This document shows, in pieces, positions 1,102 to 56,126 of a stretch of DNA of 64,000 nucleotides. This DNA is from a virus. Taxonomy: Duplodnaviria; Heunggongvirae; Uroviricota; Caudoviricetes. The position numbers were made by a program, and so were the translations under genes. Under the pieces are notes generated by a model, which made no database searches, was not told the DNA's origin, and saw only the letters and a list, made by a program, of their open reading frames with translations. The stretch covers positions 29,793 through 93,792 of the IMG/VR virus record IMGVR_UViG_3300012983_000032. One strand, 5' to 3'. Within the stretch, counting starts at the first letter, position 1. Every line of letters begins with the position of its first letter.

Positions 1102-1112
1102 TATATTAACAC
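1102..1112 (-). promoter_or_regulatory. GTTAATATA-box promoter (GTGTTAATATA), 31 nt before the dnaJ ATG
   Basis: Recurrent motif immediately after the dnaK terminator T-tract. Confidence 0.5.
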
Positions 1113-1146
1113 AAAAATCAAAAAATCCAGCTTAAAAAGCTGGATT
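1113..1146 (-). terminator. Rho-independent terminator after dnaK
   Basis: Hairpin atccagctttttaagctggat followed on the minus strand by TTTTTTGATTTTT. Confidence 0.7.
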
Positions 1147-1158
1147 TTTCAAAATCTT

Positions 1159-3042
1159 TTAGTCTTTTACTTCATACTCTACGTCGTCGGCAGTTCCTGA
1201 GTCTGAGGTTCCCTTTGGTGTTTCCTTAGGATTTTCAGACTGTTGCTGATACAACTTTTCAGAAACTTTGTATGCAGACTCTTTAAGCTTTTCAACCTTA
1301 GATTTAAGGTCTTCTACATTATCAGAGTTCATAGACTCTTTCAATTCCTTAATGGCATTTTCACAGTTTGTCTTTTCAGACTCTGATACTTTATCACCAA
1401 GGTCTTTAATAGTTTTTTCTGTCTGATAAATTAAACTATCTGCCTCATTTTTTGTGTCCTGCAAGTCTTTTGCCTTTGCGTCCTCAGCTGCATGGGCTTC
1501 TGCTTCTTTAACCATTTTTTCAATTTCTGCCTCAGAAAGACCAGAACCAGAAGTAATTGTAATCTTTTGTTCCTTTCCTGTACCCAAGTCTTTTGCAGAA
1601 ACATTTACAATACCGTTTGCGTCAATATCAAATGTTACTTCAATTCTTGGTACACCACGAGGTGCAGCAGGAATTCCCTCAAGATTAAAGTTTCCAAGAG
1701 TACGGTTATCTTTTGCCATACTTCTTTCACCTTGCAAAACGTGAACAGTTACTGCGGTTTGTCCATCTGCATAAGTAGAGAACTCCTGACTTTTCTTTGT
1801 AGGGATAGTTGTATTCTTGTCAATAATTTTAGTAAATACACCACCCGCAGTCTCAATACCAAGTGAGAGAGGGGTTACATCAAGAAGTACGATATCTTGT
1901 TTAACATCATTATTAAGAATACCACCCTGAATTGCAGCACCAACAGCAACTGCTTCGTCAGGATTTACAGATTTGTTTCCCTCTTTACCAAATACGTCTT
2001 TTACAAGACTCTGAATTGCAGGAACACGAGTTGTACCACCTACCAAAAGAACATCGTCAATATCAGAGATTGACAAACCTGCGTCTTTCAAAGCCTGCAA
2101 CATAGGTCCACGATGACGTTCAATCAAATCGTGAATAATTGCCTCAAATTTTGAACGACTGATTTCCATTTGCAAGTGTTTTGGACCACTTTGGTCGGCA
2201 GTGATAAATGGAAGATTAACAGAAGTAGTAGTTGAACTTGAAAGTGCAATCTTTGCGTTTTCTGCGGCTTCCTTAATTCTCTGCAATGCCATAGAGTCAT
2301 TTCTAAGGTCTACACCGTTAGACTTTTTAAATTCTTCACAAATGTAGTCTACAAGTGCATTATCAAAGTCTGTACCACCAAGTTTTGCGTCCCCAGAAGT
2401 TGCAAGTACTTCAAATACACCGTCAGAAACGTCAAGAATTGAAACGTCGAAAGTTCCACTTCCCGAATCTATTACTGCAAGTTTTTTATTGATATCTTCT
2501 TTATCAAATCCAAATGCAAGTGCAGCCGCAGTAGGTTCTGCAACAAGACGGAGTACGTTAAGCCCCGCAATTTTACCAGCGTTTTTAGTTGCCTGTCTTT
2601 GTGCGTCATTAAAGTATGCAGGAACAGTAATTACCGCGTCTTTAACTTCTGTCCCAAGGTAGTCTTCGGCAGTTTTCTTCATTTTCATAAGAATCTGTGC
2701 AGAAATCTCTTCTGGGGAAAGGTCTTTACCGTCAACCTTAACACGAACATCTTCATTGTTCCCATTTGAAACTTCATATGGCACGATATTTACCCAATCT
2801 TTCATTTCAGAGTATTTATTACCCATAAAACGTTTAATTGCATAAATTGTATTATTTGGATTTGTTACTGCATTATTTTTTGCAGCCTTACCTACTACAA
2901 TATTTCCGTCTTTATATGAAACAAAAGACGGTGTAGTTCTATCACCTGTGTCATTTACAATGACAGTTGGTGTACCATTTTCAATTACAGCTACACAAGA
3001 ATTTCCTGTGCCTAAGTCACAACCGATTATTTTATTTGACAT
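1159..3042 (-). CDS. dnaK: Hsp70 chaperone DnaK
   Basis: [23 protein letters not shown]-like [12 protein letters not shown], and full ATPase plus substrate-binding domain architecture over 627 aa. A rho-independent terminator hairpin follows immediately downstream (1125-1145). Confidence 0.9.
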
Positions 3043-3200
3043 ATATATCTAACTCCTTTTTATTCATTAAAAATATTACCCAAACAGATTTCTCTGTCTG
3101 GGCATTTATATTGTTTATCTTATTTTATTTAAGAAACAATAACCTCCAGACAAGCAGTGTTAATAATGCACTACTTTAACCTCCAAATAACTTTTTACGC

Positions 3201-3854
3201 TTAGTCATTAAATGTAAGCATCTTAGGTTTTGTTTCTTCTTTTGCAGGAACAATGATGGTCAATACACCGTTTTCGAGAGTCTTTGTAAGTTTTGCAACT
3301 TCATACTGTGAACTGTCACAAATTACTCTCTGATACTCAAATGGTGTTTCTAGTGTCTGGTGCTGAACAATCTTTGACCAATCCTTGAGTTCTCTTGTAC
3401 CACCCTCGTCTTCAGGGATTGTATAAGTCTCACCGTCTTCACACTGTGTAAGAACTTCTTTCCAAGGTTTGTTTCTTGTAGCAATGATATTGAAGTAGCC
3501 ATTCTTGTAGTCCATATAAACTTGGTCTTTTGTAAATCCAGGAAGGAATACTTCAATCTTGTAGTCACCTTTAATATCATTTCCTACATTTGTCTTTGGA
3601 TAGTCACTAAGAACATACTCTTTCTTTGCACGAGTAGGGAACAAATTTCCATTATCAACACAGCGTGTATTGTAACAGATTACTGTAGAACCGTCAGGAG
3701 ACTTGTAAGTCTTCGTATTAGGGTCTTTCATGAGTTCCTGCATACGTGTATCTGCTTCTGCAAGCAATGAGTTAAATGAATTAAAAATTGAAAATGGATT
3801 AGAATTGAAGATATTATCCATCTCTTCAATAAGTGAAGGTAAATTGTTACGCAT
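3201..3854 (-). CDS. Small heat-shock protein, Hsp20/alpha-crystallin family
   Basis: Alpha-crystallin hallmarks IEVFLPGFTKDQV and a C-terminal ENGVLTIIVP motif. Confidence 0.6.
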   Translation of the reverse strand: MRNNLPSLIEEMDNIFNSNPFSIFNSFNSLLAEADTRMQELMKDPNTKTYKSPDGSTVICYNTRCVDNGNLFPTRAKKEYVLSDYPKTNVGNDIKGDYKIEVFLPGFTKDQVYMDYKNGYFNIIATRNKPWKEVLTQCEDGETYTIPEDEGGTRELKDWSKIVQHQTLETPFEYQRVICDSSQYEVAKLTKTLENGVLTIIVPAKEETKPKMLTFND

Positions 3855-4048
3855 AATCGATTTCTCCTATCAGCGTTTTATCGTTCTTGGTTTATTTTTA
3901 TGCCCCAGCCAAGTGGGCGAATTTTTTGAACACCAACTATCTTTATTTGACCCAATTAGGTACCGTATTGCAATCAAACTATTTTCATTGCGTATTCGTA
4001 TAATTAGTAGTTTTTGCAAAACTGCAAATTACCACATTTTTCATATAT

Positions 4049-4058
4049 TATATTAACA
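4049..4058 (-). promoter_or_regulatory. GTTAATATA-box promoter about 195 nt upstream of the hsp20 ATG
   Basis: Only motif copy in the 3855-4074 intergenic region; it implies a long 5' UTR. Confidence 0.4.
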
Positions 4059-4074
4059 TATTTTAAAACTTATT

Positions 4075-6371: not shown

Positions 6372-6716
6372 TTAAATATTTTTTATTGTTTTTGTATTAA
6401 ACTTAAATGTATCCACTACAAAGTCGTCAAATGTAACGTCTAATGACATTACTTTACTCAATGGAAATGTAACTGTACCATTAAGATTTGTGTCAGTAAA
6501 CTTTGCCAAAAAAACCATTTCTTTAGCATATGAACGTATAATTTTTACAGGTTCTGTAAAATAATGATAGGGGTTAAACTGTTTGTACTGTGCCATAAAC
6601 CAGCTTATTACATCCTTTTCATATGGGGATATTAAAAACTTTTGTTTATAATATGCACTTTTTGATTTTATAAGTTTTCTGTAATGTTTTAAATATAATT
6701 TTTTTATTTTATCCAT
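6372..6716 (-). CDS. Hypothetical protein
   Basis: ORF with a GTTAATATA box 4 nt upstream of the ATG. Confidence 0.3.
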   Translation of the reverse strand: MDKIKKLYLKHYRKLIKSKSAYYKQKFLISPYEKDVISWFMAQYKQFNPYHYFTEPVKIIRSYAKEMVFLAKFTDTNLNGTVTFPLSKVMSLDVTFDDFVVDTFKFNTKTIKNI

Positions 6717-6721: not shown

Positions 6722-6730
6722 TATATTAAC
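6722..6730 (-). promoter_or_regulatory. GTTAATATA box 5 nt before ATG 6716 (leaderless configuration)
   Basis: Motif-to-ATG spacing with no SD. Confidence 0.4.
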
Positions 6731-9803: not shown

Positions 9804-9813
9804 TATATTAACA
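9804..9813 (-). promoter_or_regulatory. TTGTTAATATA promoter, 28 nt before ATG 9775
   Basis: motif. Confidence 0.5.
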
Positions 9814-9922
9814 AATTAGTTTGGAATTTCAATAAAATTTGAAAATATTTTAAAAATAAGACTCTGTAAATATGTAGTGTTGTTTTTTATGGTTTAAATG
9901 AAATTTGCCATACTAATTGAAT

Positions 9923-10558
9923 ATGGCAGATTCCCCATATACAAAATTATTTGAACAGATTTACAAAAGGGCTGAAGAACGTTTCTTTGAAGAAGTTTAT
10001 AATTCAAGTAAGTCTAAAGAATATGAATCTCTATTTGAGAGTATTTATCAAAAACATTTGATAGAGTGTACAGCTTATACATTATATGATTTGATAAGAG
10101 CATTTAAAGATGAACTTTCTGACCCTCAAAAGAAGAATCAAACAGTAAATATAATTGTTAATAAGATTTTATCTGACGGTGATGAGATATTTGAAATTAA
10201 TAAAAAAGAATTAGGTAAACCTAAACCCTGTATTTTCTTAGACGAATTAGACCAAATATATTGGAAAGATAAGGAGTCAATTTTTAAGTCAGATTTTTTA
10301 AAGGATATTTTATATAATATATTCCTAGAATTAAAGAAACACGGGGTAGGAATTGGAGAGCCAACCTTAAAAAATGCAGTAGTAGGGAATGTTAAGAAAA
10401 ATTTCTGGGATGCAAATAATGGGAATTATGAAAAGGCTTTGAAACATTTTATCTCTGACTTTATCGAAAATAATAGTCGTGCAGACTTTTCTAACATTGA
10501 GAATAATGTTAGGACTGAATATGCAGAAAAGTTTAAGAAAAAGTTAAAACATGGTTAA
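9923..10558 (+). CDS. Hypothetical protein; paralog of 43152..43667
   Basis: Shared N-terminus: M(A/V)DS(P/T)YTK(L/I)FEQIYK. The track start at 9917 is TTG; the ATG at 9923 is more likely. Confidence 0.4.
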   Translation: MADSPYTKLFEQIYKRAEERFFEEVYNSSKSKEYESLFESIYQKHLIECTAYTLYDLIRAFKDELSDPQKKNQTVNIIVNKILSDGDEIFEINKKELGKPKPCIFLDELDQIYWKDKESIFKSDFLKDILYNIFLELKKHGVGIGEPTLKNAVVGNVKKNFWDANNGNYEKALKHFISDFIENNSRADFSNIENNVRTEYAEKFKKKLKHG

Positions 10559-10899
10559 TTTATAAAGTCTTCTGTTGATTTTACAAATTCGTCTGAAAAT
10601 CCATATAATTTAACATATTCCTTTACTAAATTTTTCACAGTAAGAGGGATTTTATTAAGAATAATATGTTTTTCAGCACGACCATTTTTCAAAACTAACT
10701 CTAGCCCTTTAAGAAAGGAAACTCTACCTGTATGTTTTATATTAGAAGTTTCTATTGGGAAGCAATATACATTTCTTGCACAACCTTTTCTTTTCCAATC
10801 TTCTTCAATGGAAGAATAATATTTTGCATTAAGAATCATTAATTCTTTTCTAATTTTCATTGCTTTAAAATAATTTATTATTCTCTTAATAAAATTCAT
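10555..10899 (-). CDS. Hypothetical protein; distant paralog of 43651..44130
   Basis: Shared SNIK ... RV..(L/F)..KGLE order. Both copies have a near-identical 48-nt promoter and 5' UTR. Confidence 0.4.
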   Translation of the reverse strand: MNFIKRIINYFKAMKIRKELMILNAKYYSSIEEDWKRKGCARNVYCFPIETSNIKHTGRVSFLKGLELVLKNGRAEKHIILNKIPLTVKNLVKEYVKLYGFSDEFVKSTEDFIN

Positions 10900-10904
10900 A
10901 ATTT

Positions 10905-23106: not shown

Positions 23107-23146
23107 TATATCCTCTTTTAAAAAATAATATACCTATATATTAACA

Positions 23147-23974: not shown

Positions 23975-23984
23975 TATATTAACA
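23975..23984 (-). promoter_or_regulatory. TGTTAATATA box 5 nt before ATG 23969 (leaderless configuration), after terminator 23997-24016
   Basis: motif. Confidence 0.4.
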
Positions 23985-25403: not shown

Positions 25404-25412
25404 TATATTAAC
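25404..25412 (-). promoter_or_regulatory. CGTTAATATA promoter, 79 nt before RNA-ligase ATG 25324. The UTR contains a 7-bp hairpin (cttgcat...atgcaag) and RBS AAGGAGG.
   Basis: motif. Confidence 0.45.
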
Positions 25413-28768: not shown

Positions 28769-28778
28769 TATATTAACA
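28769..28778 (-). promoter_or_regulatory. TTGTTAATATA promoter after terminator 28787-28820
   Basis: motif. Confidence 0.5.
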
Positions 28779-30398: not shown

Positions 30399-30408
30399 TA
30401 TATTAACA
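30399..30408 (-). promoter_or_regulatory. TGTTAATATA box 5 nt before ATG 30393 (leaderless configuration)
   Basis: motif. Confidence 0.4.
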
Positions 30409-31160: not shown

Positions 31161-31164
31161 TTTA

Positions 31165-31174
31165 ATATATTAAC
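31165..31174 (-). promoter_or_regulatory. TGTTAATATA box 4 nt before ATG 31160 of the beta-class MTase (leaderless configuration)
   Basis: motif. Confidence 0.4.
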
Positions 31175-33159: not shown

Positions 33160-33534
33160 TTACATTCTCCCTTTCTTAAAGATATAATAACAATGAGGTC
33201 CAGAGTTTATGTAGTCAATAATATATTGTTCACCTTTAGTGATATCCCCATATCGAATCTCACAGTCATAAGGGATATAAAACTCTATTTCTCTAATATT
33301 TGTAAAATTCTTAATGTGCATAGTGAGTTTACACTGTGCATAGTCAGGATAAGACTCAAACTTGTAGTCTAATAGTTTACCAACCCATTTATTTTCATAT
33401 TTAGCACCTAGAGAGTTTGCATAGTCTTCTATAATTGTTATAGTCTTATATCTCTTAAAAGTACGTAGTGCATTTCTCAAATGGTCTTTATTGAAATAAT
33501 TACGTTTTAAGGGTTTTTCATTTTTCATATTCAT
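33160..33534 (-). CDS. Hypothetical protein
   Basis: The promoter box abuts the first ATG. The protein may initiate at the second ATG (M3) as a leaderless mRNA. Confidence 0.3.
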   Translation of the reverse strand: MNMKNEKPLKRNYFNKDHLRNALRTFKRYKTITIIEDYANSLGAKYENKWVGKLLDYKFESYPDYAQCKLTMHIKNFTNIREIEFYIPYDCEIRYGDITKGEQYIIDYINSGPHCYYIFKKGRM

Positions 33535-33543
33535 ATATTAACA
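33534..33543 (-). promoter_or_regulatory. TGTTAATAT box abutting the ATG (33534); 7 nt before the second ATG
   Basis: motif. Confidence 0.35.
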
Positions 33544-34145: not shown

Positions 34146-34154
34146 TATATTAAC
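34146..34154 (-). promoter_or_regulatory. AGTTAATATA box 5 nt before ATG 34140 (leaderless configuration)
   Basis: motif. Confidence 0.4.
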
Positions 34155-34253: not shown

Positions 34254-35102
34254 ATGGGAAAACATTTTAAGCCATTAAATAAAAGAACTCACTATAAAAA
34301 AGTATGTAGAAGTTGTGGAGAATTATATTCTGACGATTTTGCAGAGACAGAAATATGTCCAAAATGCCATGAGAAATATAAAGGGAAGAAACCTATACCT
34401 TATAAATGTACTTGTGGTCAGATATTTATGGGACAAAGAGCATTTAGGGCACACAGAAGTGAAATGAAAAAAGCTGGAACTTCTTGTCCACCATATGAAA
34501 GACATGAAACTATGACTAATTGTCCTTATTGTGGAAAGGAACTATCAGCGTCTATGGATAAAAGATGGGGCAAGGAAACATTATTTACTCATTATAAAAC
34601 CTGTAATGAAAGAGAGATTGCATTGGCAAAATATGGGAGTTATAAAAAAACTCCTATGGCAATTCAACATAAACAAGAATCTATGCAATCTATAGAATAT
34701 ATAATTAAAATGTTAACTAGCCCTAAAAGGGAAGACCCTGGTGTCTCTGAAACAGCAATGAATACAGCATTAGGTGGTATTGCGGGGCAAAATACCTTGC
34801 AACAGAATATATTTCTATATAGTGTATTTGAAAAATATAACAGACAATATGACTTGAAAGGCTGCCTTTATAGGGCAAGTTCTATTCAAAATGTTATATT
34901 AGAATTACAGTTAGTTTTTAATTTTGATAATCAGTTAAAAGATTATTTTAGAGAAACTTTTGAAAAGGAAAAATGGTTAATTATAGATTTAAATTGGTCT
35001 GATTTTATTTTAAACCCAGAAGAGTCTGAAAAAAAGGTAATACAGGCAATTATTGACCAAGAGAACAAATTAGGAGTGCCATTTAAAATGAGTAATTGTT
35101 AA
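34254..35102 (+). CDS. Multi-zinc-finger protein
   Basis: Repeated CxxC pairs: CRSCG...CPKCH, CTCG, CPPY...CPYCG. Confidence 0.4.
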   Translation: MGKHFKPLNKRTHYKKVCRSCGELYSDDFAETEICPKCHEKYKGKKPIPYKCTCGQIFMGQRAFRAHRSEMKKAGTSCPPYERHETMTNCPYCGKELSASMDKRWGKETLFTHYKTCNEREIALAKYGSYKKTPMAIQHKQESMQSIEYIIKMLTSPKREDPGVSETAMNTALGGIAGQNTLQQNIFLYSVFEKYNRQYDLKGCLYRASSIQNVILELQLVFNFDNQLKDYFRETFEKEKWLIIDLNWSDFILNPEESEKKVIQAIIDQENKLGVPFKMSNC

Positions 35103-35106
35103 TATA
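35098..35106 (+). promoter_or_regulatory. TTGTTAATATATAAT promoter, 30 nt before DNA-polymerase ATG 35136
   Basis: motif plus RBS TGGAGG. Confidence 0.5.
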
Positions 35107-37339: not shown

Positions 37340-37348
37340 GTTAATATA
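37340..37348 (+). promoter_or_regulatory. TTGTTAATATATAG promoter directly after the truncated polymerase ORF
   Basis: motif; drives the small ORFs at 37407-38023. Confidence 0.45.
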
Positions 37349-37406: not shown

Positions 37407-37496
37407 TGGCGTGTCGTATATCAAAAGAATATAAACTGTCTCAAGGTAAAGAAGAATACCTTATGTTAACAGCAGATTTCGGCTCGTTACAATGAC
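37407..37496 (+). CDS. Possible 29-aa ORF behind a strong promoter and RBS
   Basis: TTGTTAATATATAG box at 37338-37351, RBS AAGGAGG, then ATG. Sequence MACRISKEYKLSQGKEEYLMLTADFGSLQ. Confidence 0.2.
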
Positions 37497-38023: not shown

Positions 38024-38120
38024 TGAATACTCTGCCGAATCTTGAGTTCGGCAGATTTCCACTCTTTCAATGGTACATAATTTTTCAAATTAATTACAGT
38101 ATTCACATTCCTAATTAAAT

Positions 38121-40941: not shown

Positions 40942-40981
40942 AATAAATTAGTGGATTAATGGTTAATTTATAGATTCATTT

Positions 40982-40990
40982 GTTAATATA
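40982..40990 (+). promoter_or_regulatory. TTGTTAATATA promoter, 19 nt before ATG 41009
   Basis: motif plus RBS TGGAGGA. Confidence 0.5.
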
Positions 40991-43149: not shown

Positions 43150-43151
43150 CT

Positions 43152-44130: not shown

Positions 44131-44144
44131 ATATTACCCCCAAT

Positions 44145-44192
44145 TTTATCTAATATTATATTAACATATTTATAAGATTTTACTAAAACTAT
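44145..44192 (-). repeat. Second copy of the 48-nt promoter/5' UTR element
   Basis: See 10905..10952. Confidence 0.8.
44167..44176 (-). promoter_or_regulatory. GTGTTAATATA promoter, second copy of the 48-nt element
   Basis: Identical to 10905-10952 except for one mismatch. Confidence 0.5.
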
Positions 44193-46727: not shown

Positions 46728-46736
46728 GTTAATATT
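46728..46736 (+). promoter_or_regulatory. Variant GTTAATATT box 7 nt before helicase ATG 46743 (leaderless configuration)
   Basis: Variant motif, no SD. Confidence 0.3.
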
Positions 46737-48568: not shown

Positions 48569-49327
48569 TTAGATAACTGCCACAGGTCTTTCAATAACGT
48601 GTGCCCATTTAACACTAGAAGAATTAAGTGGTTTTATATTTTTAACCACATAATCCCAAGGCAAGAAAATATCATTTCCTGGACCTTGCCAGTCATTAAG
48701 GGTATTTCCATATGGGTCGTCTATTTTAATTTTTGCAATTTTAATATCATTAGGTATTACACCTTTTAATTTTACAGAGTTTGCAGCTTCAATGTAATCT
48801 TTTTCTTCCATAGCAAATCCTGTACAAACTACAATATGGTTTAGTCTTACATTATTTGACTTTGGAAAACTCCCTGATATAACAAAAGGAAGTGAGTCTA
48901 AAACAAAGTTTTTCCAACATAATGCAGGAAAATTGGCACGTTCAATAAACCTTGTAGCATTAGGAACTTTAACCCATAAATTAAAAGCATAACTTAATAT
49001 TGAATGGATTTCATTTGGAGTATAACACCCTCTTTTACCTGCCTTGTAGTCTTCATACATTGTTGGATAATTTATTTTGTAATATTCATCTACTTCTTTA
49101 GAATTCATAATGAAATCTGCAAAATTATCTTCTGGTTGAGTATATTTACCTACAGGTAATTTCCATCCTGCATAGTCTGCAAACATAACATAACTTGTAA
49201 CATTACACATTGTAGAGTTTTTTACTTCTGCAAAGTTTTTTTTCCATACAAACTGATTATTTCTTTGTGAATAATTTTCTTTATTACCGTCACAGTCAAA
49301 ATAAATAATTCCGTCTTTCTTATACAT
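48569..49327 (-). CDS. Hypothetical protein
   Basis: ORF flanked by terminator hairpin 48538-48564. Confidence 0.3.
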   Translation of the reverse strand: MYKKDGIIYFDCDGNKENYSQRNNQFVWKKNFAEVKNSTMCNVTSYVMFADYAGWKLPVGKYTQPEDNFADFIMNSKEVDEYYKINYPTMYEDYKAGKRGCYTPNEIHSILSYAFNLWVKVPNATRFIERANFPALCWKNFVLDSLPFVISGSFPKSNNVRLNHIVVCTGFAMEEKDYIEAANSVKLKGVIPNDIKIAKIKIDDPYGNTLNDWQGPGNDIFLPWDYVVKNIKPLNSSSVKWAHVIERPVAVI

Positions 49328-49458
49328 ATAGATATCTCCTTATACATTAATTAGCTTATAATCTCTATTTTTGAAAATATACACCTATCATAATACCCTT
49401 TACTAATTTAAATATACTAAGGAGTCTAATTAAAAAACGTAAAGGGGGATTTTATAAG

Positions 49459-49689
49459 TTGTTTAATAAGACTTGCGAGACCAGAAAATCTGATACTGCA
49501 GAAGTTGTAAATCAACTTTTTGACCTTTGTATGAAAATGCAAAGAAAATCAGAACCGGAACAAGCTATGCAATTCGCAGAACTTGTAGAAAACCTTTCCA
49601 GTTTAGTTGATAAGCTAGGTCAGGCAGATATTGAACAAATGGTATTTGACTTGAAAGAACTTATCAATAACTCTTTAAGGGAAGATTAA
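49459..49689 (+). CDS. Hypothetical small protein with a TTG start
   Basis: RBS AAAGGGGGAT. Followed by a strong terminator. Confidence 0.3.
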   Translation: MFNKTCETRKSDTAEVVNQLFDLCMKMQRKSEPEQAMQFAELVENLSSLVDKLGQADIEQMVFDLKELINNSLRED

Positions 49690-49710
49690 AATCCATAGTC
49701 TTACCTAATT

Positions 49711-49745
49711 CCCACACCAAAAGGTGTGGGTTTTTTATTTTTTTT
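49711..49745 (+). terminator. Rho-independent terminator
   Basis: cccacaccaaaaggtgtggg then TTTTTTATTTTTTTT. Confidence 0.8.
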
Positions 49746-49754
49746 GTTAATATA
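49746..49754 (+). promoter_or_regulatory. TTGTTAATATA promoter right after terminator 49711-49745. 97-nt 5' UTR with a 9-bp hairpin (atcttacat/atgtaagat) at about 49785-49808.
   Basis: motif. Confidence 0.5.
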
Positions 49755-49851
49755 TCTGTATAACAGAGGCTATTTATAGAAAAATCTTACATCTTTAATG
49801 TAAGATAACATTCAAGACAGATTTGGAAAAATAATTGGAGGAATTAAAAAT

Positions 49852-50223
49852 ATGTTTCCTACTGACTTTGACTTGAGGGGGTTAAGTTCACCTATTAAGG
49901 TAACTCCTCGTGAAAAAGATTGGGTTGCTGCACCAGACCATTATGCACAATTAAAAGAAAAACTTGGGGGTAAGGAGTGTTGGGACGTATATACACTTCT
50001 TTTGAGACATAAACCAAGAATCCCAGGATTTCTTGCAACATTTTGGCAAAACTGTTTCAAGTACCTTTGGCGTCTTGGAGACAAACCAGGTGACTACGGT
50101 AAAACTGACGAAGAAAAGATGTGTGAAGACATGTGTAAAGTAATGGAATATGCTGCAAAATTTATTATTGAGGCTGGTGGTAAAATTCCTGACTTCTCAC
50201 ATATTCAATACACAGGAGAATAA
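49852..50223 (+). CDS. Hypothetical protein
   Basis: RBS TTGGAGG. 97-nt 5' UTR containing a hairpin. Confidence 0.35.
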   Translation: MFPTDFDLRGLSSPIKVTPREKDWVAAPDHYAQLKEKLGGKECWDVYTLLLRHKPRIPGFLATFWQNCFKYLWRLGDKPGDYGKTDEEKMCEDMCKVMEYAAKFIIEAGGKIPDFSHIQYTGE

Positions 50224-50224
50224 T

Positions 50225-51532
50225 ATGGGGAAACATCCTTTTTTACCATTATATAACTTTATAAAAAAACATCCATTTACTTGGAAAAAGAAACTCAAGG
50301 AAAATCCATATTGTATTACAATTAAGAGTCCAAATTATAACAAAGATTGGTATATGTTCTCATATAGTCAGTTCGACTCGGACTTTTATAATGACGTAGT
50401 AAAATGCTGTCGTGGGACAGTTTTGGAAGTTAAAGGAAAACTTTTCAAACGTATCAAACCAATTTGTTTACCATTCAAAAAGTTTGGTAATTACGGTGAA
50501 GGGTATTGTGACCCTATTGACATAGAAAGTGCTACTATTCGTGATAAAGTTGACGGCATTCTTGTAAAGTGTTCTGTAATTGACGGAAAAACATATTGGT
50601 TTACAAATAACGGTTTTGACTGGACTATGAAGTTTGGTACAGATTTTTCTTTTGATGACGGTGAAGAAGCAACTAAACTTGCTGAAAACTTTGGTGATTT
50701 ATTAGAATATGCGTTATACCGTAAACTGGATATCCCAAGATTTACAGTTGTCGGTAAGTATAAAGATATTACCAAATCACTTAACCGTATTTACAATATG
50801 GAAAATTCTTGGTTATCTAAAATCCCAAATAACTATACTCTTGGCTTTGAGTTAGTTTCACCTAGAAATAGAATCATTTGCAAATATCCTGAAACAAAAA
50901 TTGTTTTATTGTTTGCAAGAGATAATATTACAGGTCAGGAATTTACACCAGAAGAAATGGTATCCCAATATGGTATCCCATATGAAACACCAAAATTATA
51001 TGACTGTAAAACACTTAAAGACACTCAGGAAATGTTAAAGTCTTTCAAAGGTCTTGAACAAGAAGGTGTAGTAGTTTGTGATAAATATTTTCATCGTGTA
51101 AAAATGAAGTGTGAGTCATACTTACAGTTAAAGTATGCTGTAGATAATGACAAACCTAAAATAATCTTTAAGGCAGTTGTAGAAGAGTCCACTGACGACT
51201 TACTTACTGCATTTCCTACTTTAAAAGACTCTGTAGATAAAATGACAGAAGATATAAAAAACTTTAAGGAATCCTACAAAAAGTTCTACGAGTTTTTGCA
51301 GCTTAAAGGTGTTGAGGACAAAAAGATATTTGCATTATATGTAAATGCAAATATAAATGACCCTTTAAAAAAGTTGGCTTTTAATGCAAGCAGTCAAACC
51401 GCAGAACAAATTGTGGATAAGTTCATTACGGAATGTGCAATGAAAAGTTCTAAGGGGTATAGAGAATATTTTAATGTTAAAGCATTATTAGATAATGGAG
51501 AATATTTACATAATAGAACAATAAAAAACTAA
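50225..51532 (+). CDS. ATP-dependent RNA ligase, Rnl1/Rnl2-like nucleotidyltransferase
   Basis: Motif I IRDKVDGILVK (KxDG), motif IV EQEGVVVCDK, motif V RVKMK. The ATG at 50225 has RBS AGGAG; the track start at 50150 is rejected. Confidence 0.55.
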   Translation: MGKHPFLPLYNFIKKHPFTWKKKLKENPYCITIKSPNYNKDWYMFSYSQFDSDFYNDVVKCCRGTVLEVKGKLFKRIKPICLPFKKFGNYGEGYCDPIDIESATIRDKVDGILVKCSVIDGKTYWFTNNGFDWTMKFGTDFSFDDGEEATKLAENFGDLLEYALYRKLDIPRFTVVGKYKDITKSLNRIYNMENSWLSKIPNNYTLGFELVSPRNRIICKYPETKIVLLFARDNITGQEFTPEEMVSQYGIPYETPKLYDCKTLKDTQEMLKSFKGLEQEGVVVCDKYFHRVKMKCESYLQLKYAVDNDKPKIIFKAVVEESTDDLLTAFPTLKDSVDKMTEDIKNFKESYKKFYEFLQLKGVEDKKIFALYVNANINDPLKKLAFNASSQTAEQIVDKFITECAMKSSKGYREYFNVKALLDNGEYLHNRTIKN

Positions 51533-51541
51533 TTGTATATT

Positions 51542-51823
51542 ATGATAAATGTTACACAATCTATCTCTGCCCTCTCTCAGATAGAGGGTTTATGCAATGT
51601 TTACGAAGTATTTAATGGTTTACATTCTGAGAGTTTTGTATTGAACTATAAAAACCTTAAATGTAATATTACTATAAAAAATAATGACATTATTACTTTT
51701 ACTATAATTGGAAATAATTGCAGTTTTAAAAGGAGCTGGTCATTGTTAAAACAAGAGAACGAAGAGGCATTTATAAATGACCTAAAGTTCTTCTTTGAAG
51801 ATACAGAAAGAAAAATCGCCTAA
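51542..51823 (+). CDS. Hypothetical protein
   Basis: ORF with a terminator downstream. Confidence 0.3.
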   Translation: MINVTQSISALSQIEGLCNVYEVFNGLHSESFVLNYKNLKCNITIKNNDIITFTIIGNNCSFKRSWSLLKQENEEAFINDLKFFFEDTERKIA

Positions 51824-51831
51824 ATCTAAAA

Positions 51832-51866
51832 CCTAGGAACTTATAGTCCTAGGTTTTTATTTTTAA
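51832..51866 (+). terminator. Rho-independent terminator
   Basis: cctaggaacttatagtcctagg then TTTTTATTTTT. Confidence 0.75.
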
Positions 51867-51893
51867 AAATAATCCTAAAAATTTTAATTCTCT

Positions 51894-51902
51894 GTTAATA
51901 TA
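51894..51902 (+). promoter_or_regulatory. CTGTTAATATA promoter, 32 nt before ATG 51934, after terminator 51832-51866
   Basis: motif. Confidence 0.5.
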
Positions 51903-51933
51903 ACTTTATATATCATATTAAGGAGAATATTAA

Positions 51934-52461
51934 ATGAAAAAACTAATTTTTATTTTTGCACTTATCTTTGGGCTTAATATTGTAATGGGGTGTGATGCAA
52001 ATTATGAACAATCTGCCTCAGTAAAAACTGCAGAAACAGCAAATAATGCTATGGAGTCAGCAATTGCTGCTACACCTATTCCTACCGTTACACATTTCTT
52101 GGAAAGAAAAACTATTGCCAAATGGGTAGAAACTTGGGACCAACCTAGTTTACCTTGTTATGTATATCTTTATTCATACGGTGTATGTATTGGATATTAC
52201 GTTTCTAATGGAAAACCTGCAAGTACTCAGTCTTATTTAATCCCAGAAGAATCATATCAGAGAGTAAGAAGTGCAGAGGGGTATTCAAGTACATTAATGA
52301 CACAAGCACCTGATTTAGACGGAACATACGGTACAAATAATCCTGGAATTCGTTTCTTTACTGCGTCAGGTGTAGCAGTTGAATGGGCAGGTGCAGGTGC
52401 AACATATCTTTATAGTAATGCACCTATTAAGACACTGAATGTACCTTTGCTAGGAGACTAA
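51934..52461 (+). CDS. Putative lipoprotein
   Basis: Signal peptide plus lipobox NIVMGC. Confidence 0.4.
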   Translation: MKKLIFIFALIFGLNIVMGCDANYEQSASVKTAETANNAMESAIAATPIPTVTHFLERKTIAKWVETWDQPSLPCYVYLYSYGVCIGYYVSNGKPASTQSYLIPEESYQRVRSAEGYSSTLMTQAPDLDGTYGTNNPGIRFFTASGVAVEWAGAGATYLYSNAPIKTLNVPLLGD

Positions 52462-52463
52462 AA

Positions 52464-53000
52464 ATGAGCCTTTTCAAAAAAATTTTTGATTTACCCCCAG
52501 AAGATGTAGAAGCCTTCATTATAAATCGAGTAAAGAATATGTGGGGAGAGTATGACGGTAGATATGATGACTACGATATAGAAATTAAATGGCTAGTACC
52601 CTGTAATGAGTTCTATGTACATCTTGAGCCTAAACTTCAGACAAAAGATTGGCAAGTTTATTCTTTTAAGAATAATAAAAATCTGTCTCTTAAAGACTAT
52701 TTTGACGAGACCTTTAAACATTGGCATTTTACCTTCCAAGAAATATATGGTCTTATGACAGGTGAGACAGTATTTATTGGGTATCTTAGTTGTGATGGGA
52801 TAGAAGACTTTGGAATGATGGAATATAATTTCATTTATGAAAAGGAATATATTACTGTTAAATACCATAAACCTACAGAGGCTTGGGTTATAGTAGATTG
52901 GGATGAAGAGAAAGAACGTTTTGCATTAGGGGACTTGCCGTCTAAATTGGTAAAGTTCATTAAGGAAGAAAAAGTTTTCGACTTAGATAAAGAGGGATAA
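52464..53000 (+). CDS. Hypothetical protein
   Basis: RBS AGGAGAC. Confidence 0.3.
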   Translation: MSLFKKIFDLPPEDVEAFIINRVKNMWGEYDGRYDDYDIEIKWLVPCNEFYVHLEPKLQTKDWQVYSFKNNKNLSLKDYFDETFKHWHFTFQEIYGLMTGETVFIGYLSCDGIEDFGMMEYNFIYEKEYITVKYHKPTEAWVIVDWDEEKERFALGDLPSKLVKFIKEEKVFDLDKEG

Positions 53001-53131
53001 ATGAGAATTAAATGGAAAAACTTTTGGATTTGGTTTATTGACCAAGTTAAAAGAAAACGTGCCTTTTATATATTGGCTAAAAAATGATAGTATAGTCATT
53101 AATGACTTCAAAAAACGATGGGAGATATAAA

Positions 53132-53287
53132 ATGGAACAATACCTATATTCTATTTTAGACGAATATGGCAACGTTACTGCAAAAGATATGACATTAGAC
53201 GTAGCAATGGTCTTATTAAGAGCCTTGTTTATGGAATATTTTAACGAGCCAACAATTGGGTATCAAATGGTAAGACAGGAAAAATGA
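53132..53287 (+). CDS. Hypothetical small protein
   Basis: ATG with RBS GGGAGA. Confidence 0.25.
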   Translation: MEQYLYSILDEYGNVTAKDMTLDVAMVLLRALFMEYFNEPTIGYQMVRQEK

Positions 53288-53308
53288 AAAAAGACTGAGG
53301 TAAAAAAT

Positions 53309-53650
53309 ATGACAGAAGAAAAAATAAAGGAACTTGAAGACTGTATTCCTAAAAAACATAAGCGAGTAGATTTTAGTAAAGAAAAGGGAGTCTTATATGA
53401 TTACCTTATAAATATTAAGGGTAAGTATGGGTTTGACATATCTGATAACAATTTTAATAATTGTTGTTGGGGTTCTAACTATGACACAGATAGATTATTA
53501 TTTAAGATACTTCATAGAATAAATTGTGAAGACGTTGATGTTTGTTATAATTACTACTCTGATATTTCAGACGTAGACTGGTTCAAAATTGTTTTGAAAA
53601 TACCTATTGAAGAATTAAGAAAAAGAAAGACTAAAAATGGTGAAGATTGA
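53309..53650 (+). CDS. Hypothetical protein
   Basis: RBS GAGG. Confidence 0.3.
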   Translation: MTEEKIKELEDCIPKKHKRVDFSKEKGVLYDYLINIKGKYGFDISDNNFNNCCWGSNYDTDRLLFKILHRINCEDVDVCYNYYSDISDVDWFKIVLKIPIEELRKRKTKNGED

Positions 53651-54065
53651 AATTTTATGTAATGTTTGTCAAAAAATTTTTAGAAAATCTAAAATATGCA
53701 AACCAAATAATATTGAACAAAGTTACTATAACTTAAAAGACACTACAATTAAAAATGATTGGGTATACGAAGAAAGTGAAGATAGTTACTATTGTCCAGA
53801 ATGTGCAGAATTTAGAAATCTCTATAAAGGTAAACGTGCATCCATGAATAAAGAAAATAATCCAGACTGGCATTATACGGAGTCAGGGGACTTGCCACCA
53901 ATAGTTAGAAATGGAATAACTGATACTGTAATAGACCAAAATGGGCAAGAAGTATTCTATAGCCAAAACTGTGGATGGTTAAAAGATGATGAGATGGTAG
54001 TAGTTAAAGTCTATAAATGGAAATATAAATGTATGGTAAATTATGTTGGAAATAGGAGGAAATAA
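53637..54065 (+). CDS. Zinc-ribbon protein
   Basis: CNVCQK ... CPECAEF. Confidence 0.3.
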   Translation: MVKIEILCNVCQKIFRKSKICKPNNIEQSYYNLKDTTIKNDWVYEESEDSYYCPECAEFRNLYKGKRASMNKENNPDWHYTESGDLPPIVRNGITDTVIDQNGQEVFYSQNCGWLKDDEMVVVKVYKWKYKCMVNYVGNRRK

Positions 54066-54067
54066 AT

Positions 54068-54847
54068 ATGTTTGCAGATAATCTTGGTGACAGAATGAAA
54101 ATGCACTATGAAAATCTTACAAAGACTAAACTTATTCAGGAAGTACCAGTAATTATAAGACTTGACGGTAAAGCATTTCATACCTTTACACGTAAATTTG
54201 AAAAGCCTTTTGACAGTATTCTTGTAAAGACAATGCAGGAAACTACAAAATACTTGTGTGAAAATATTCAGAACTGTATCTTTGGGTATACTCAATCTGA
54301 CGAAATTTCTTTGGTCTTGACTAAACCTCTTATTAGTTCGGAAGTTTGGTTTGACTATGAAGTACAGAAACTTTGCAGTGTTTCTGCGTCTATGGCTACT
54401 TTGGCATTTATGCAGAACTTTAAAAAGAATATTAACGAAAGATACGTTGTAGACCCTCTTTCAGATGTTTACCGTACTGCATTAGATAAAGGGGCAATGT
54501 TTGACGCAAGATGTTTTAATATCCCAGAGTGTGAAGTTGTAAACTGTATTTATTGGAGACAGATTGACGCAAAACGTAATTCGGTACAAATGTTGGCAAG
54601 GTCTCTTTACTCTCATAAAGAGCTTGACAAAAAGAATACTGCTATGTTACTCGAAATGTGTAATCAAAAAGGTAAAGATTGGGAGAAACTTTCTAATCAC
54701 CTTAAATGGGGTTCTGCAGTAAAATACAACCTAGAAACTCATAAAGTTGAAATTGATGAAAATATGCCACTTCTTAAAGGAGAAGACAGAAAGTATCTTG
54801 AAGACTTTATTGTAATGAACCAAGACCCTTCACCACATTTCCACTAA
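54068..54847 (+). CDS. Thg1-like protein (tRNA-His guanylyltransferase family, 3'-5' nucleotidyl addition)
   Basis: VIIRLDGKAFHTFTRKF (RxDGxxFHxF) and FGYTQSDEISLVL (SDE catalytic motif). 259 aa, typical TLP size. Confidence 0.7.
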   Translation: MFADNLGDRMKMHYENLTKTKLIQEVPVIIRLDGKAFHTFTRKFEKPFDSILVKTMQETTKYLCENIQNCIFGYTQSDEISLVLTKPLISSEVWFDYEVQKLCSVSASMATLAFMQNFKKNINERYVVDPLSDVYRTALDKGAMFDARCFNIPECEVVNCIYWRQIDAKRNSVQMLARSLYSHKELDKKNTAMLLEMCNQKGKDWEKLSNHLKWGSAVKYNLETHKVEIDENMPLLKGEDRKYLEDFIVMNQDPSPHFH

Positions 54848-54867
54848 TTTTTTAAGGAGATATTAGT

Positions 54868-55086
54868 ATGGCAAAGAAAACTGCAAAAGAAGTTGTTTCC
54901 GAAGTTACACAAAAGATTAACGAGTCTGCAAAGGAAACAAAAGCAGAAAACGGTGAGGAACTTTCTAAAGAAAGTAAAGAAGCCGCAACTGCAACTAAAA
55001 ACTTCTTCAAAGAAGTTGGAGAATGGTTTGTAGCACTTTTCAAATATATTGGAAAGTTCTTCAAAAAACTTTTCACTAAAAAGTAA
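54868..55086 (+). CDS. Small Lys-rich protein with a C-terminal amphipathic helix
   Basis: WFVALFKYIGKFFKKLFTKK. RBS AAGGAGA. Confidence 0.3.
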   Translation: MAKKTAKEVVSEVTQKINESAKETKAENGEELSKESKEAATATKNFFKEVGEWFVALFKYIGKFFKKLFTKK

Positions 55087-55134
55087 TTATATGGCAGTCT
55101 AAAAAGACTGCCAAAATTATTGGAGGTATTCTAA

Positions 55135-55647
55135 ATGAAATTTATATTTAGTGTAGGATGTTCTGGAAGTGGAAAATCTACATATTATTATAAAAACCTT
55201 AAAGACACATTTGAAATTGTAGAACCTGACTTAATCCGAAAAGAAATGGGTGATATCAATGACCAATCAAGAAATGGTGAAGTATATATGACTGCACACA
55301 AACGTCTTGACAAATATCTTAGTGAGGGTAAAAACGTTTATTTTTCAGCAACAAATCTTAACATTAAATCAATTAAAGATATAGGAGACATTGCAAAAAA
55401 ATATACAGACGATATTACTTGTATACAATTTAATGACTCATATGTATGGGAACTCTGTCAAGATAGAGTTAAAAAAGACCTGAGTAATGGAGTAGATAGG
55501 TCAAATACTGATGTTATGAAAGAACTTCCAACAGGTGAAAAAATACCTCTTGTTAAAGAGATGTCTGATAGATTTACCAAATTGGTTAACAGCCAAGAGT
55601 TTTCCGACCTTATTGAAGAGCAGGGTATTAAATTAATGGAGGTATAA
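55135..55647 (+). CDS. Polynucleotide 5'-kinase, T4 Pnk kinase-domain-like, with no phosphatase domain
   Basis: VGCSGSGKST P-loop, EPDLIRKEM, SATNLN; compare T4 Pnk GCPGSGKST and SDTNLN. Confidence 0.65.
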   Translation: MKFIFSVGCSGSGKSTYYYKNLKDTFEIVEPDLIRKEMGDINDQSRNGEVYMTAHKRLDKYLSEGKNVYFSATNLNIKSIKDIGDIAKKYTDDITCIQFNDSYVWELCQDRVKKDLSNGVDRSNTDVMKELPTGEKIPLVKEMSDRFTKLVNSQEFSDLIEEQGIKLMEV

Positions 55648-55649
55648 AA

Positions 55650-56102
55650 ATGAAGTCTGTTTTTAAGAATATTATAATTTTCTGCATAGGATTTACAATA
55701 TACCAAAGTATTGAGGGTATATTCAAAATGGTTGTACCTAATATGGGTGCAGAAAGTTTTTTAATGGGAATAATTGGTGGTTTAGCACTTCTTCTTATAG
55801 GAGGGATAAATAATAAACTTTCCTGGAATATGCCTATTTGGTTACAGTCTATTATTGGTGGAGTATGTATATTAGGAACAGAATTTATAATGGGTCTTAT
55901 CCTTAATAAATGGCTCTGTCCTTTACTTAATAAACCTTTAATTTGGGACTACTCAAACTTTCCTGGGAATATTATGGGGCAAATATGTCCTCAATTCTTT
56001 ATAGCTTGGATACTATTAGGTGCCACCTGTATTGTAATTGACGACTATTTAAGATACTTTTTATTTAACGAAGAAAAACCACATTATTGCTGGAAATTCT
56101 AA
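55650..56102 (+). CDS. Integral membrane protein, about four TM helices
   Basis: Hydrophobic segments IIIFCIGFTIY, LMGIIGGLALLLIGGI, IIGGVCILGTEFIMGLIL, ILLGATCIVI. Confidence 0.4.
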   Translation: MKSVFKNIIIFCIGFTIYQSIEGIFKMVVPNMGAESFLMGIIGGLALLLIGGINNKLSWNMPIWLQSIIGGVCILGTEFIMGLILNKWLCPLLNKPLIWDYSNFPGNIMGQICPQFFIAWILLGATCIVIDDYLRYFLFNEEKPHYCWKF

Positions 56103-56117
56103 AAATCTTATTTTTAC

Positions 56118-56126
56118 GTTAATATA
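56118..56126 (+). promoter_or_regulatory. ACGTTAATATA promoter, 39 nt before the C5-MTase ATG
   Basis: motif. Confidence 0.5.

Follow-up and report, generated by a model that had tools for sequence, protein, structure and literature searches.

A strict, gene-oriented box as the probable core promoter element of non-virion genes in an uncultivated 425-kb phage, with a predicted leaderless class

What is the short AT-rich word that recurs in front of genes in this phage DNA, and what might read it? The stretch analysed, 64,000 nucleotides long and called here the window, belongs to an uncultivated phage of 425 kb whose host is probably a Treponema of the gut or rumen. We think, with a probability of about 0.8, that (T)GTTAATAT(A) acts on its own, independently of a −35, as the core promoter element of the main non-virion class of genes, probably early/middle.

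The initial annotation of this DNA had counted about 25 copies. The strong recurrence stands, and the number becomes 23 exact copies of GTTAATATA, on both strands, plus one to three plausible variants (46728, GTTAATATT; 13775, ATTAATATA; about 3070, GGTAATATT). A set of 100 dinucleotide-preserving shuffles gave 2.20 ± 1.51 copies (largest count, 5), which places the box above composition. The 8-mer GTTAATAT occurs 28 times versus 7.3 expected; its five copies beyond the 23 are 15085 (GTTAATATG), the intergenic 46728 and three inside coding sequence, which read GTT-AAT-ATT. The conserved core is T-GTTAATAT-A, and the longer form, (T)GTTAATATA, is strict over 9–10 bases, one-mismatch variants being hardly enriched (57 non-exact matches versus about 53 expected). 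GTTAATAT was also the top motif of a crude de novo discovery on oriented intergenic segments. Since the flanks carry almost no information, the copies can be considered independent. The box is asymmetric, with neither a dyad nor a direct-repeat partner. Its proposed likeness to an extended −10 element (TG-n-TAATAT) lacking a −35 is borne out by its sequence and by the −35 search, in which the best TTGACA match 16–18 nt from the box was no better than in shuffled controls; nor does the window show an excess of generic −35/−10 pairs.

All 23 exact copies are intergenic or reach no more than 5 nt into the end of a gene, and all of them point in the direction of the next gene, so that the gene orientation claimed for both strands holds. 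The box, at a density of one per 2.7 kb, is missing from all six convergent gaps and present in 15 of the 21 tandem gaps that measure 50 nt or more and in six of the eight divergent ones. Promoters must exist in divergent gaps and immediately behind intrinsic terminators, and therefore boxes found there count for the promoter reading; as some promoter-requiring gaps have no box, it is not the sole promoter signal of the genome. A terminator adjoins the box at five sites (1118, 23150, 23994, 28786 and 49730) and lies 37–50 nt upstream at two more. The unit of hairpin, T-tract and box described initially can thus be recognized at the five abutting sites, not as a general feature. The sites are as follows (N5, ATG 5 nt after the box; SD, Shine-Dalgarno sequence):

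1102..1110 (−): 30-nt leader to the DnaJ gene 130–1071; directly after terminator hairpin 1152–1118.
4049..4057 (−): 194 nt upstream of the Hsp20-like gene 3201–3854, with only small ORFs between.
6722..6730 (−): N5 to the ATG of 6372–6716, no SD; leaderless class, predicted +1 at 6716.
9804..9812 (−): divergent gap; 28-nt leader with AGGA to gene 7949–9775.
10926..10934 (−): 26-nt leader to gene 10555–10899; duplicated module, compare 44157.
12231..12239 (−): 43-nt leader with GAGGAGG to the GTG start of 11348–12187.
14865..14873 (−): 91-nt leader to the FlaB-like flagellin gene 13913–14773.
19280..19288 (−): N7 to the ATG of methyltransferase-like 18454–19272, no SD; predicted leaderless or with a 0–3-nt leader.
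23137..23145 (−): adjoins terminator 23177–23150; 30-nt leader to the helicase gene 21367–23106.
23975..23983 (−): adjoins terminator 24019–23994; N5 to the ATG of 23202–23969, no SD; leaderless class.
25404..25412 (−): 79-nt leader with a hairpin to the RNA ligase gene 24032–25324.
28769..28777 (−): adjoins terminator 28811–28786; leadered (GGAGG), gene 28501–28734; kept in relatives L100 and L101.
30399..30407 (−): fills a 17-nt gap; N5 to the ATG of 30085–30393, no SD; leaderless class; same arrangement in L100 and L101.
31166..31174 (−): N5 to the ATG of N6/N4 DNA methyltransferase 30411–31160, no SD; N5 with another spacer in L100.
33534..33542 (−): 15-nt gap; N5 to the ATG at 33528 (33160–33528), no SD; N5 with another spacer in L100.
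34146..34154 (−): divergent gap; N5 to the ATG of 33550–34140, no SD; the orthologue has N5 in L101 and N6 in L011.
35098..35106 (+): 29-nt leader with GGAGG to the DNA polymerase A gene 35136–37325; orthologous box in L011, L100 and L101.
37340..37348 (+): leader with conserved hairpin 37359–37377, then a 29-aa ORF, 37406–37495.
40982..40990 (+): divergent gap; the N5 ATG is out of frame, not used and absent in L100; SD-led start of 41009/41021–41620.
44157..44165 (−): divergent gap; 26-nt leader to gene 43651–44130; duplicate of the 10926 module.
46728..46736 (+): variant box GTTAATATT; N6 to the ATG at 46743 of helicase 46743–48533, no SD; N5 in L100.
49746..49754 (+): 16 nt after terminator 49711–49730; leader of about 97 nt to 49852–50223.
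51894..51902 (+): 37 nt after terminator 51828–51857; 31-nt leader with AGGAG to gene 51934–52461.
56118..56126 (+): 38-nt leader to the C5 DNA methyltransferase gene 56165–57226.

The two spacing classes that had been described are real. About two thirds of the sites have a GGAGG-type SD between box and ATG, at variable distance. In six genes the ATG lies exactly 5 nt after the 9-mer, and in two more at 6–7 nt; all eight of these starts are ATG without an SD, whereas most other genes have GGAGG-like sites. The arrangement GTTAATAT-N6-ATG occurs seven times versus 0.12 expected, and six of these ATGs open long ORFs. For the N6/N4 methyltransferase 30411–31160, the alignment to the solved homologues DpnA, MboIIA and CcrM begins at residue 4–5, which fixes the box-adjacent ATG as its real start. 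A Pribnow-to-start distance of 6–8 nt has been used for recognizing leaderless genes (PMC6028130), and the box, which ends 6 nt before the ATG, fits it. It is well supported in silico that about one third of the sites are placed so that the predicted +1 is the A of an SD-less ATG, which would give a leaderless mRNA. The leaderless list of the initial annotation shrinks to eight sites: its 31165 should read 31166, and 15085 is dropped, since there the ATG lies inside the box itself, with GAGG 13 nt upstream, and the box cannot serve that gene in this way. A second class of SD-less genes, with a CTAATT-N4-ATG box, is present, and therefore a missing SD alone is no proof of leaderless mRNA in this genome. 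For those SD-less genes that lie in tight gaps, read-through transcription followed by some other mode of translation is conceivable.

The box is also kept in relatives. In L100 and L101 (86–93% DNA identity), 0 of 72 and 0 of 63 box positions are changed, compared with 9.7–11.9% of other intergenic positions and about 11% of coding positions; by this measure, purifying selection acts on the box. The 5 nt after it are changed at 35% of positions while the spacer length is kept, and such drift in sequence at constant length is, as a sequence pattern, the standard signature of leaderless mRNA. A further relative, L011 (PolA 70% identical), has five copies of GTTAATAT versus 0.79 expected, all five intergenic, with orthologous sites before PolA, after PolA and before the orthologue of 33550–34140. 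In relatives that are more distant, other boxes seem to be in use.

Behind the boxes are replication, modification and chaperone genes. An early/middle class had been proposed from the absence of the box at virion genes, an argument that is not supported: it concerns three tail-fibre/SprT-like genes of 6.5 kb in total, and such a gap is not unusual at one box per 2.7 kb. Many non-virion genes lack the box as well (DnaK, 34254, 39145–40941, 44205, 45104–46531 and 48569–49327). We infer that the box probably marks the main non-virion transcription class, early/middle.

In the mechanism that we propose, a multisubunit RNA polymerase holoenzyme would bind the box as a −10-type element and then melt the DNA, and initiation would occur about 7 nt past the last T, with a preference for an A that follows a T. 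With a start 7 nt after the last core T, the box would read TG(−15/−14)-n-TAATAT(−12 to −7), a −10 fit that is partly circular because +1 was taken from geometry and ATG positions. Transcripts from about two thirds of the sites would carry a leader of 16–97 nt (occasionally longer) with a GGAGG-type ribosome-binding site. At about one third (six at N5, two at N6–N7), +1 would be the A of the ATG, and these leaderless mRNAs would be translated without SD interaction. Terminator hairpins directly upstream of several boxes would insulate successive units. We infer both the transcription start position and leaderless translation from this geometry.

Several known systems resemble this arrangement in part. 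Extended −10 promoters (TGnTATAAT) serve host RNA polymerase in the late genes of Thermus phage P23-45 and the middle genes of T4, and a phage that blocks −35 recognition, through gp39 or AsiA, can thereby favour such promoters (PMC4124052). Like them, the box is a single −35-independent element with TG one base upstream of the −10 hexamer; unlike them, its hexamer is invariantly TAATAT and not TATAAT-like, and it precedes replication and modification genes, whereas the P23-45 promoters are late. The P23-45 middle and late transcripts are reportedly largely leaderless (Berdygulova et al. 2011). Compared with ordinary sigma-A promoters, positions −13, −10, −9, −8 and −6 are also fixed here. No gp39- or AsiA-like factor was identified in the ~76 kb visible of 425 kb. 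T4 late promoters are TATAAATA, read by gp55. That protein is a phage sigma (PMC5312081). They share with the box a short, strict, AT-rich −10 element without a −35, and T4 reads them through this phage-encoded sigma-like protein; however, they drive virion genes, while the box precedes DNA metabolism genes and is missing from tail-fibre-like genes. No gp55 homologue was seen in the same ~76 kb. The lambda cI mRNA made from PRM is an example of a leaderless message. In Actinobacteria and Deinococcus-Thermus, leaderless genes have a −10 box 6–8 nt from the start codon (PMC6028130, PMC3160421, PMC12340547). With these and cI the box shares a −10-type element that ends 6 nt before the ATG, no SD, an ATG start (not GTG or TTG) and SD-led genes in the same genome; the strict 9–10-mer differs from a loose TANNNT. 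Here, the leaderless signature belongs to a phage of a probable spirochaete host. To our knowledge, leaderless translation has not been described as common in spirochaetes, nor are we aware that frequent leaderless genes have been reported for that lineage.

The early promoters of jumbo-phage virion RNA polymerases, in phiKZ and AR9 (PMC7598289, PMC5312081), are close in other respects. In AR9 the consensus reads AAATATATATTAT-(6N)-G+1: transcription begins 6 nt past the box, and one mismatch is enough to abolish function (PMC5312081). Common traits are an AT-rich box, some 10 nt long and centred at −10, that is very highly conserved, a start 6 nt after it, intolerance of single mismatches, a phage-lineage-specific sequence, and bioinformatic discovery upstream of early operons in very large phages. 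The box sequence differs, the available ~76 kb shows no genes for a multisubunit RNA polymerase, and phiKZ/AR9 transcripts are leadered, while one site in three here is of leaderless type. A virion-delivered multisubunit RNA polymerase of this kind, or another phage RNA polymerase, could have the box as its early promoter, in which case no sigma-70-family holoenzyme would read it. The parallel of the AR9 consensus with GTTAATAT-(6N)-A, the lack of enriched one-mismatch variants and of a −35, the other boxes of more distant relatives and the replication, modification and chaperone genes behind the box all agree with that. We consider it unlikely: Pfam and PHROGs give no beta/beta'-like gene in the ~76 kb visible and the relatives' loci (such genes are divergent), the nearest matches of the family A DNA polymerase (24% identity) come from SPO1-like and T5-like phages, whose transcription relies on the host polymerase, phiKZ is without leaderless transcripts (PMC8244752), and AR9 leaders measure 26–491 nt (PMC5312081).

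An operator for a phage or host regulator, beside promoters set by other, weaker signals, would explain the strict conservation of 9–10 bp, typical of regulator sites, and the promoter-requiring gaps that have no box. It is improbable for an asymmetric element in a single orientation relative to the gene, at a fixed distance to SD-less ATGs that is kept in relatives; besides, no other promoter-like signal is enriched around the box, and gaps of 15–17 nt are too small to hold a second core promoter behind it. Even less probable is a signal in the RNA of polycistronic transcripts, whether a processing site (e.g., for an endoribonuclease giving 5'-AUG mRNAs) or a non-SD translation signal. In its favour, the box shares strand specificity and an intergenic location with RNA signals, and at N5 sites it takes the SD place; but five boxes directly follow hairpin-plus-T-tract terminators, where upstream transcripts would end first, six lie in divergent gaps where no sense transcript arrives from upstream, and the normal GGAGG SD at two thirds of the sites makes the box unneeded for ribosome binding there. 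Chance, in the form of an AT-rich word in a genome of 31% G+C, or a single repeat or mobile sequence present in several copies, as the duplicated module at 10926 and 44157 might suggest, is hardly credible: the 2.2 shuffled copies, uninformative flanks, single orientation of 23/23 and lack of substitutions in relatives refute it.

For the core promoter element that we favour, the issue becomes which factor reads it. In 502 kb of Treponema DNA, GTTAATAT has 14 matches, a chance-like number, and upstream of Treponema genes TAATAT is outnumbered by both TATAAT and TAAAAT. The proposed comparison with host sigma-70 points the other way: the box is no Treponema-wide signal, and therefore its likeness to an extended −10 is no proof of reading by unmodified host polymerase. 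In the ~76 kb visible of the 425-kb genome, neither a sigma factor gene nor an RNA polymerase gene was found. We think that a phage-specified factor (a phage sigma, a modified host holoenzyme or a phage RNA polymerase) is somewhat likelier than unmodified host sigma-A, because 9–10 positions are invariant, one-mismatch variants are nearly absent, Treponema promoters do not have the box and distant relatives apparently have others. A leaderless start at about a third of the sites would be a tidy solution, yet no new kind of biology.

The recurrent, gene-oriented box described in the initial annotation stands out clearly from shuffled sequence: GTTAATATA was counted 23 times in the window against 2.2 ± 1.5 copies expected from dinucleotide-preserving shuffles, and all 23 copies are intergenic, overlapping a gene end by 5 nt at most, and point toward the next gene on the same strand. 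When the 46 intergenic gaps measuring 12 nt or more were sorted by type, the box was present in 6 of 8 divergent gaps, in 15 of the 21 tandem gaps that reach 50 nt and in none of the 6 convergent ones. Motif discovery agrees with the proposal, since a crude expectation-maximisation on oriented intergenic segments of the window, of the ~10 kb directly upstream (L016) and of a further relative (L011) returned the eight-base core GTTAATAT as the top motif. Seven further box sites are found in L016. The conserved unit can be written as T(78-85%)-G-T-T-A-A-T-A-T-A(~90%). Taken together, one-mismatch variants hardly exceed expectation, and most of the copies with T, C or G at position 9 are intragenic chance matches that read Val-Asn-Ile. 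Clustered boxes were seen on no contig among the IMG/VR matches listed for TGTTAATATANNNNTATG, which have single chance-level matches, and a literature search for the word GTTAATATA gave unrelated matches only.

The flanks of the box carry almost no information and, therefore, the copies can be considered independent. The exception is formed by the sites at 10926 and 44157, which belong to a duplicated module (9917-10934 and 43146-44165) of two convergent, overlapping genes with a GTTAATATA promoter and a leader; the upstream regions of both module copies are near-identical.

The comparison with relatives indicates that the box is strongly selected. Ten contigs from other samples were of no use for footprinting, being 99.99-100% identical, and the contigs L100 and L101 of a relative (PolA, the family A DNA polymerase, 97% identical; DNA 86-93% identical) served instead. 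Not one box position is changed in L100 (0/72) or in L101 (0/63), whereas other intergenic positions are changed in 11.9% and 9.7% of cases and coding positions in 10.9% and 11.5%, respectively. The most variable positions overall are the five bases that follow the box, with 35% changed. In L011, with a PolA 70% identical, GTTAATAT is present in 5 copies versus 0.79 expected, all of them intergenic and including the orthologous sites of 35098, 37340 and 34146. As regards the population itself, contigs L002-L010, L015 and L016, which come from six or more further samples or assemblies (ENA, Logan, JGI), match the window within 1612-58423 and 49205-64000 at 99.99-100% identity over up to 14.8 kb; therefore, the phage population is remarkably clonal or the samples are related.

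We think that the box is a promoter element of the -10 type, with a probability of about 0.8. Five boxes abut a terminator (hairpin plus T-tract) and two more lie 37-50 nt behind one. Because boxes are located behind terminators and in six divergent gaps, a new promoter is required and an upstream RNA-level signal is excluded. An operator is disfavoured by the asymmetry, fixed orientation and fixed spacing of the box. If transcription starts at position 15, the box would read T-15 G-14 T-13 T-12 A-11 A-10 T-9 A-8 T-7 A-6, that is, an extended -10 element with a strictly conserved core from -14 to -7. With this numbering a TG lies one base upstream of the -10 hexamer, its G being invariant and the preceding T present at 18 of 23 window sites and at all 7 of L016. 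The hexamer TAATAT is invariant at all sites and shares 4 of its 6 positions with TATAAT, among them the critical T-12, A-11 and T-7. The predicted start position relies on the location of the ATG codons and on a weak T14-A15-T16-(A/G) preference downstream of the box. No -35 element accompanies it: the best TTGACA match at 16-18 nt resembles what shuffled upstream DNA gives, no part of the window is enriched in generic -35/-10 pairs, and no UP-like conserved element was found near the box.

A spacing class in which the box lies next to the ATG and no ribosome-binding site is present had also been proposed, and it holds up well. The arrangement GTTAATAT-N6-ATG occurs 7 times versus 0.12 expected, and in 6 of the 7 a long ORF has this ATG as its first start codon. 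The genes of this class are the following (N5 denotes five bases between the 9-mer and the ATG):

6372-6716, N5
23202-23969, N5
30085-30393, N5
30411-31160, N5, a methyltransferase
33160-33528, N5
33550-34140, N5
46743-48533, start 6-7 nt after the 9-mer, in its variant GTTAATATT
18454-19272, start 6-7 nt after the 9-mer

All eight start with ATG and none has a Shine-Dalgarno (SD) sequence, whereas most other genes show GGAGG-like sites 5-12 nt upstream. Alignments of the methyltransferase 30411-31160 to DpnA, MboIIA and CcrM begin at residue 4-5, which makes a downstream start impossible, and an upstream start is also absent. Other box-adjacent starts are supported by orthologues in L011, L100 and L101. 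L100/L101 also retain N5 at four orthologous sites, despite a differing spacer sequence (ttaaa vs atata, tgaat vs ttgtt, gttgt vs tcctt); the 46728 site is N5 in L100, and the L011 orthologue of 33550-34140 starts 6 nt after the box. At 40982 the N5 ATG is not a start codon, and it is not conserved in L100. The site at 15085, formerly included in this class, has to be removed from it, as the ATG lies inside the box itself with GAGG upstream. The distance from TAATAT to the ATG is 6 nt at six genes and 7-8 nt at two more, the same as the 6-8 nt between the -10 box and the start codon of predicted leaderless genes in other bacteria (PMC6028130). The in-silico case for a leaderless subclass is well supported, and we are inclined to think that box-adjacent genes are probably expressed from leaderless mRNAs. 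One of them, 18454-19272, is the last of three adjacent paralogues (18454-21367(-)) that share an N-terminal (M/L)NPPY adenine-methyltransferase-like motif, and is the only one with its own box. The 276 nt of 31161-31436 contain no ORF and end in a strong terminator (31249-31224) that closely precedes the box at 31166; this stretch is possibly a small RNA. An Rfam scan of the window, including this stretch, gave no match, and the long leaders between box and gene therefore belong to no known RNA family.

The window (G+C ~31%) derives from the metagenomic contig ENA ERZ27246346 k141_1467315 of 425,174 bp, its position 1 corresponding approximately to position 23,832 of that record. The majority of ORFs lack a match in Pfam or PHROGs. 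Those with an assignable name comprise chaperones (DnaK, DnaJ and an Hsp20-like protein), several DNA methyltransferases, two helicases, two RNA ligases, thymidine kinase, Thg1, PolA, a TnpB/IS605 gene, a FlaB-type flagellin and, at the right end, three large tail-fibre/SprT-like genes. GenBank contains no close phage: a 12-kb query returned no match by megablast, and by tblastn no phage polymerase there exceeded 24% identity to PolA, the best being SPO1-like and T5-like ones; a scan of IMG/VR with PolA peptides found nothing. The host is probably Treponema, because the phage flagellin is 60-68% identical to gut and rumen Treponema flagellins.

The flagellin gene (13913-14773(-)), whose matches include T. 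bryantii and a large number of MAGs, represents cargo that is unusual for a phage and offers a clue to the host lineage; it has its own GTTAATATA promoter with a leader of 91 nt. Directly downstream lies the TnpB/IS605 OrfB (Cas12f-like) gene, 12250-13608(-), and the 304-nt gap between both (13609-13912) holds a terminator hairpin and then a one-mismatch box, ATTAATATA, at 13775. In relatives (L012), PolA likewise has one or two TnpB genes nearby. The PolA ORF itself (35136-37325) ends ahead of motif A and is followed by the box at 37340, a leader hairpin (37359-37377) with compensatory changes in L100, and a separate 29-aa ORF (37406-37495) ending in EEYLMLTADFGSLQ and a stop codon. Only the first ~74 residues of the C-terminal polymerase piece of relatives are present in the window (37496-37713), frameshifted, and the remainder is missing from it.

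The genes preceded by a box have functions in chaperoning, replication, modification and RNA repair, which is compatible with an early/middle class. The initial annotation had further read the box as absent from virion genes. It is indeed missing at three tail-fibre/SprT-like ORFs in 6.5 kb, but several non-virion genes also lack it.

Another positioned box, CTAATT-N4-ATG, is present in 7 copies in the window versus 1.7 expected:

34-46(-), CTAATT-N4-ATG
9913-9925(+), CTAATT-N4-ATG
14999-15011(-), CTAATT-N4-ATG
38111-38123(+), CTAATT-N4-ATG
40939-40951(-), CTAATT-N4-ATG
43142-43154(+), CTAATT-N4-ATG
59116-59128(-), CTAATT-N4-ATG

Every copy lies at the start of a gene or small ORF without a clear SD and without GTTAATATA. 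The carriers include the SprT-like, virion-side gene, partner genes in divergent gaps, and the small ORF 14792-15001, otherwise treated as dubious. The same arrangement precedes SD-less genes in the relatives L012, L017 and L018. This box may represent a further class of promoter or a translation signal of the non-SD type. The word ACTAATT, regardless of position, is under-represented overall, and the enrichment concerns the positioned form only. More distant relatives (PolA 51-53% identical) have few or no GTTAATAT sites. L018 contains four exact copies of ATTGTAAAAT, all intergenic and co-oriented (1185, 3861, 5218 and 7118), and L012 has 7 copies of TACATATT versus 3.4 expected, with (T)TACATATT(AT) at 3428, 14862, 17760 and 19945. 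These words are suggestive of promoter boxes that may be lineage-specific.

Concerning the reader of the box, a phage-specified factor seems somewhat more likely to us than the unmodified host sigma-A. The box does not behave as a Treponema signal, as 502 kb of host DNA contain 14 scattered GTTAATAT matches and TATAAT and TAAAAT are commoner than TAATAT upstream of host genes. Its 9-10 invariant positions include some that sigma-A freely tolerates, one-mismatch variants are not used, and more distant relatives apparently use other boxes. The factor could be a virion RNA polymerase of the jumbo-phage (phiKZ/AR9) type, the early promoters of which are AT-rich, highly conserved over ~10 nt and centred at -10, differ from phage to phage, start transcription 6 nt downstream and are inactivated by one mismatch, the AR9 consensus being AAATATATATTAT-(6N)-G+1 (PMC7598289, PMC5312081). 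Our box resembles them in AT-richness, ~10-nt conservation, -10 centring, predicted start spacing and mismatch intolerance. However, phiKZ and AR9 transcripts are leadered (PMC8244752, PMC5312081), and the ~76 kb visible (~18% of the genome) and the relatives' loci show no polymerase subunit or sigma gene. This search compared ~45 ORFs of the window, flank and relatives with Pfam and PHROGs; neither the precomputed Pfam matches nor PHROGs revealed split beta/beta'-like subunits in the window, the upstream flank or the relatives' loci, where many ORFs are matchless, and a large PHROG match in L018 proved to correspond to a DUF285/LRR repeat protein.

An alternative is that a phage factor restricts the host holoenzyme to extended -10 promoters, for which there is precedent in Thermus phage P23-45 and in T4 middle transcription (PMC4124052). 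A T4-type late promoter does not fit, given that the genes behind the box encode polymerase, helicase, methyltransferase, ligase and chaperones and that the box is missing before the three tail-fibre/SprT-like ones; no gp55-like protein was found in the visible part of the genome. Coming back to the phage-specified factor, a more far-reaching proposal, which we regard as unlikely though worth stating, combines a polymerase or sigma orthogonal to the Treponema machinery, a start point precisely 7 nt downstream of GTTAATAT, a regulon devoted to leaderless expression that exists alongside an SD-led one and acts as a built-in translational switch, and CTAATT-N4-ATG as a further initiation mode. 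The leaderless regulon would arise from placing the ATG at the start point in a third of the units, and the switch might operate, for example, if leaderless mRNAs were favoured or silenced when the phage alters ribosomes or initiation factors.

The box is real and most likely represents a -35-independent promoter element, of an already known kind, in an uncultivated megaphage that is probably associated with Treponema. In our opinion, its value lies in providing a ready-made transcription-unit map for an uncultivated 425-kb phage lineage without a cultured relative, and in fixing reliably the starts of SD-less genes, which gene callers can place wrongly. With the box as a sequence tag, fragments of this lineage can be spotted in metagenomes, and for Treponema genetics it offers a compact, -35-independent promoter candidate. 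It also directs attention to the polymerase or sigma factor that reads a 10-bp element not used by the probable host. To our knowledge, the Treponema lineage is not known for leaderless expression. If the leaderless class were confirmed, programmed leaderless expression would be extended to a spirochaete-phage system.
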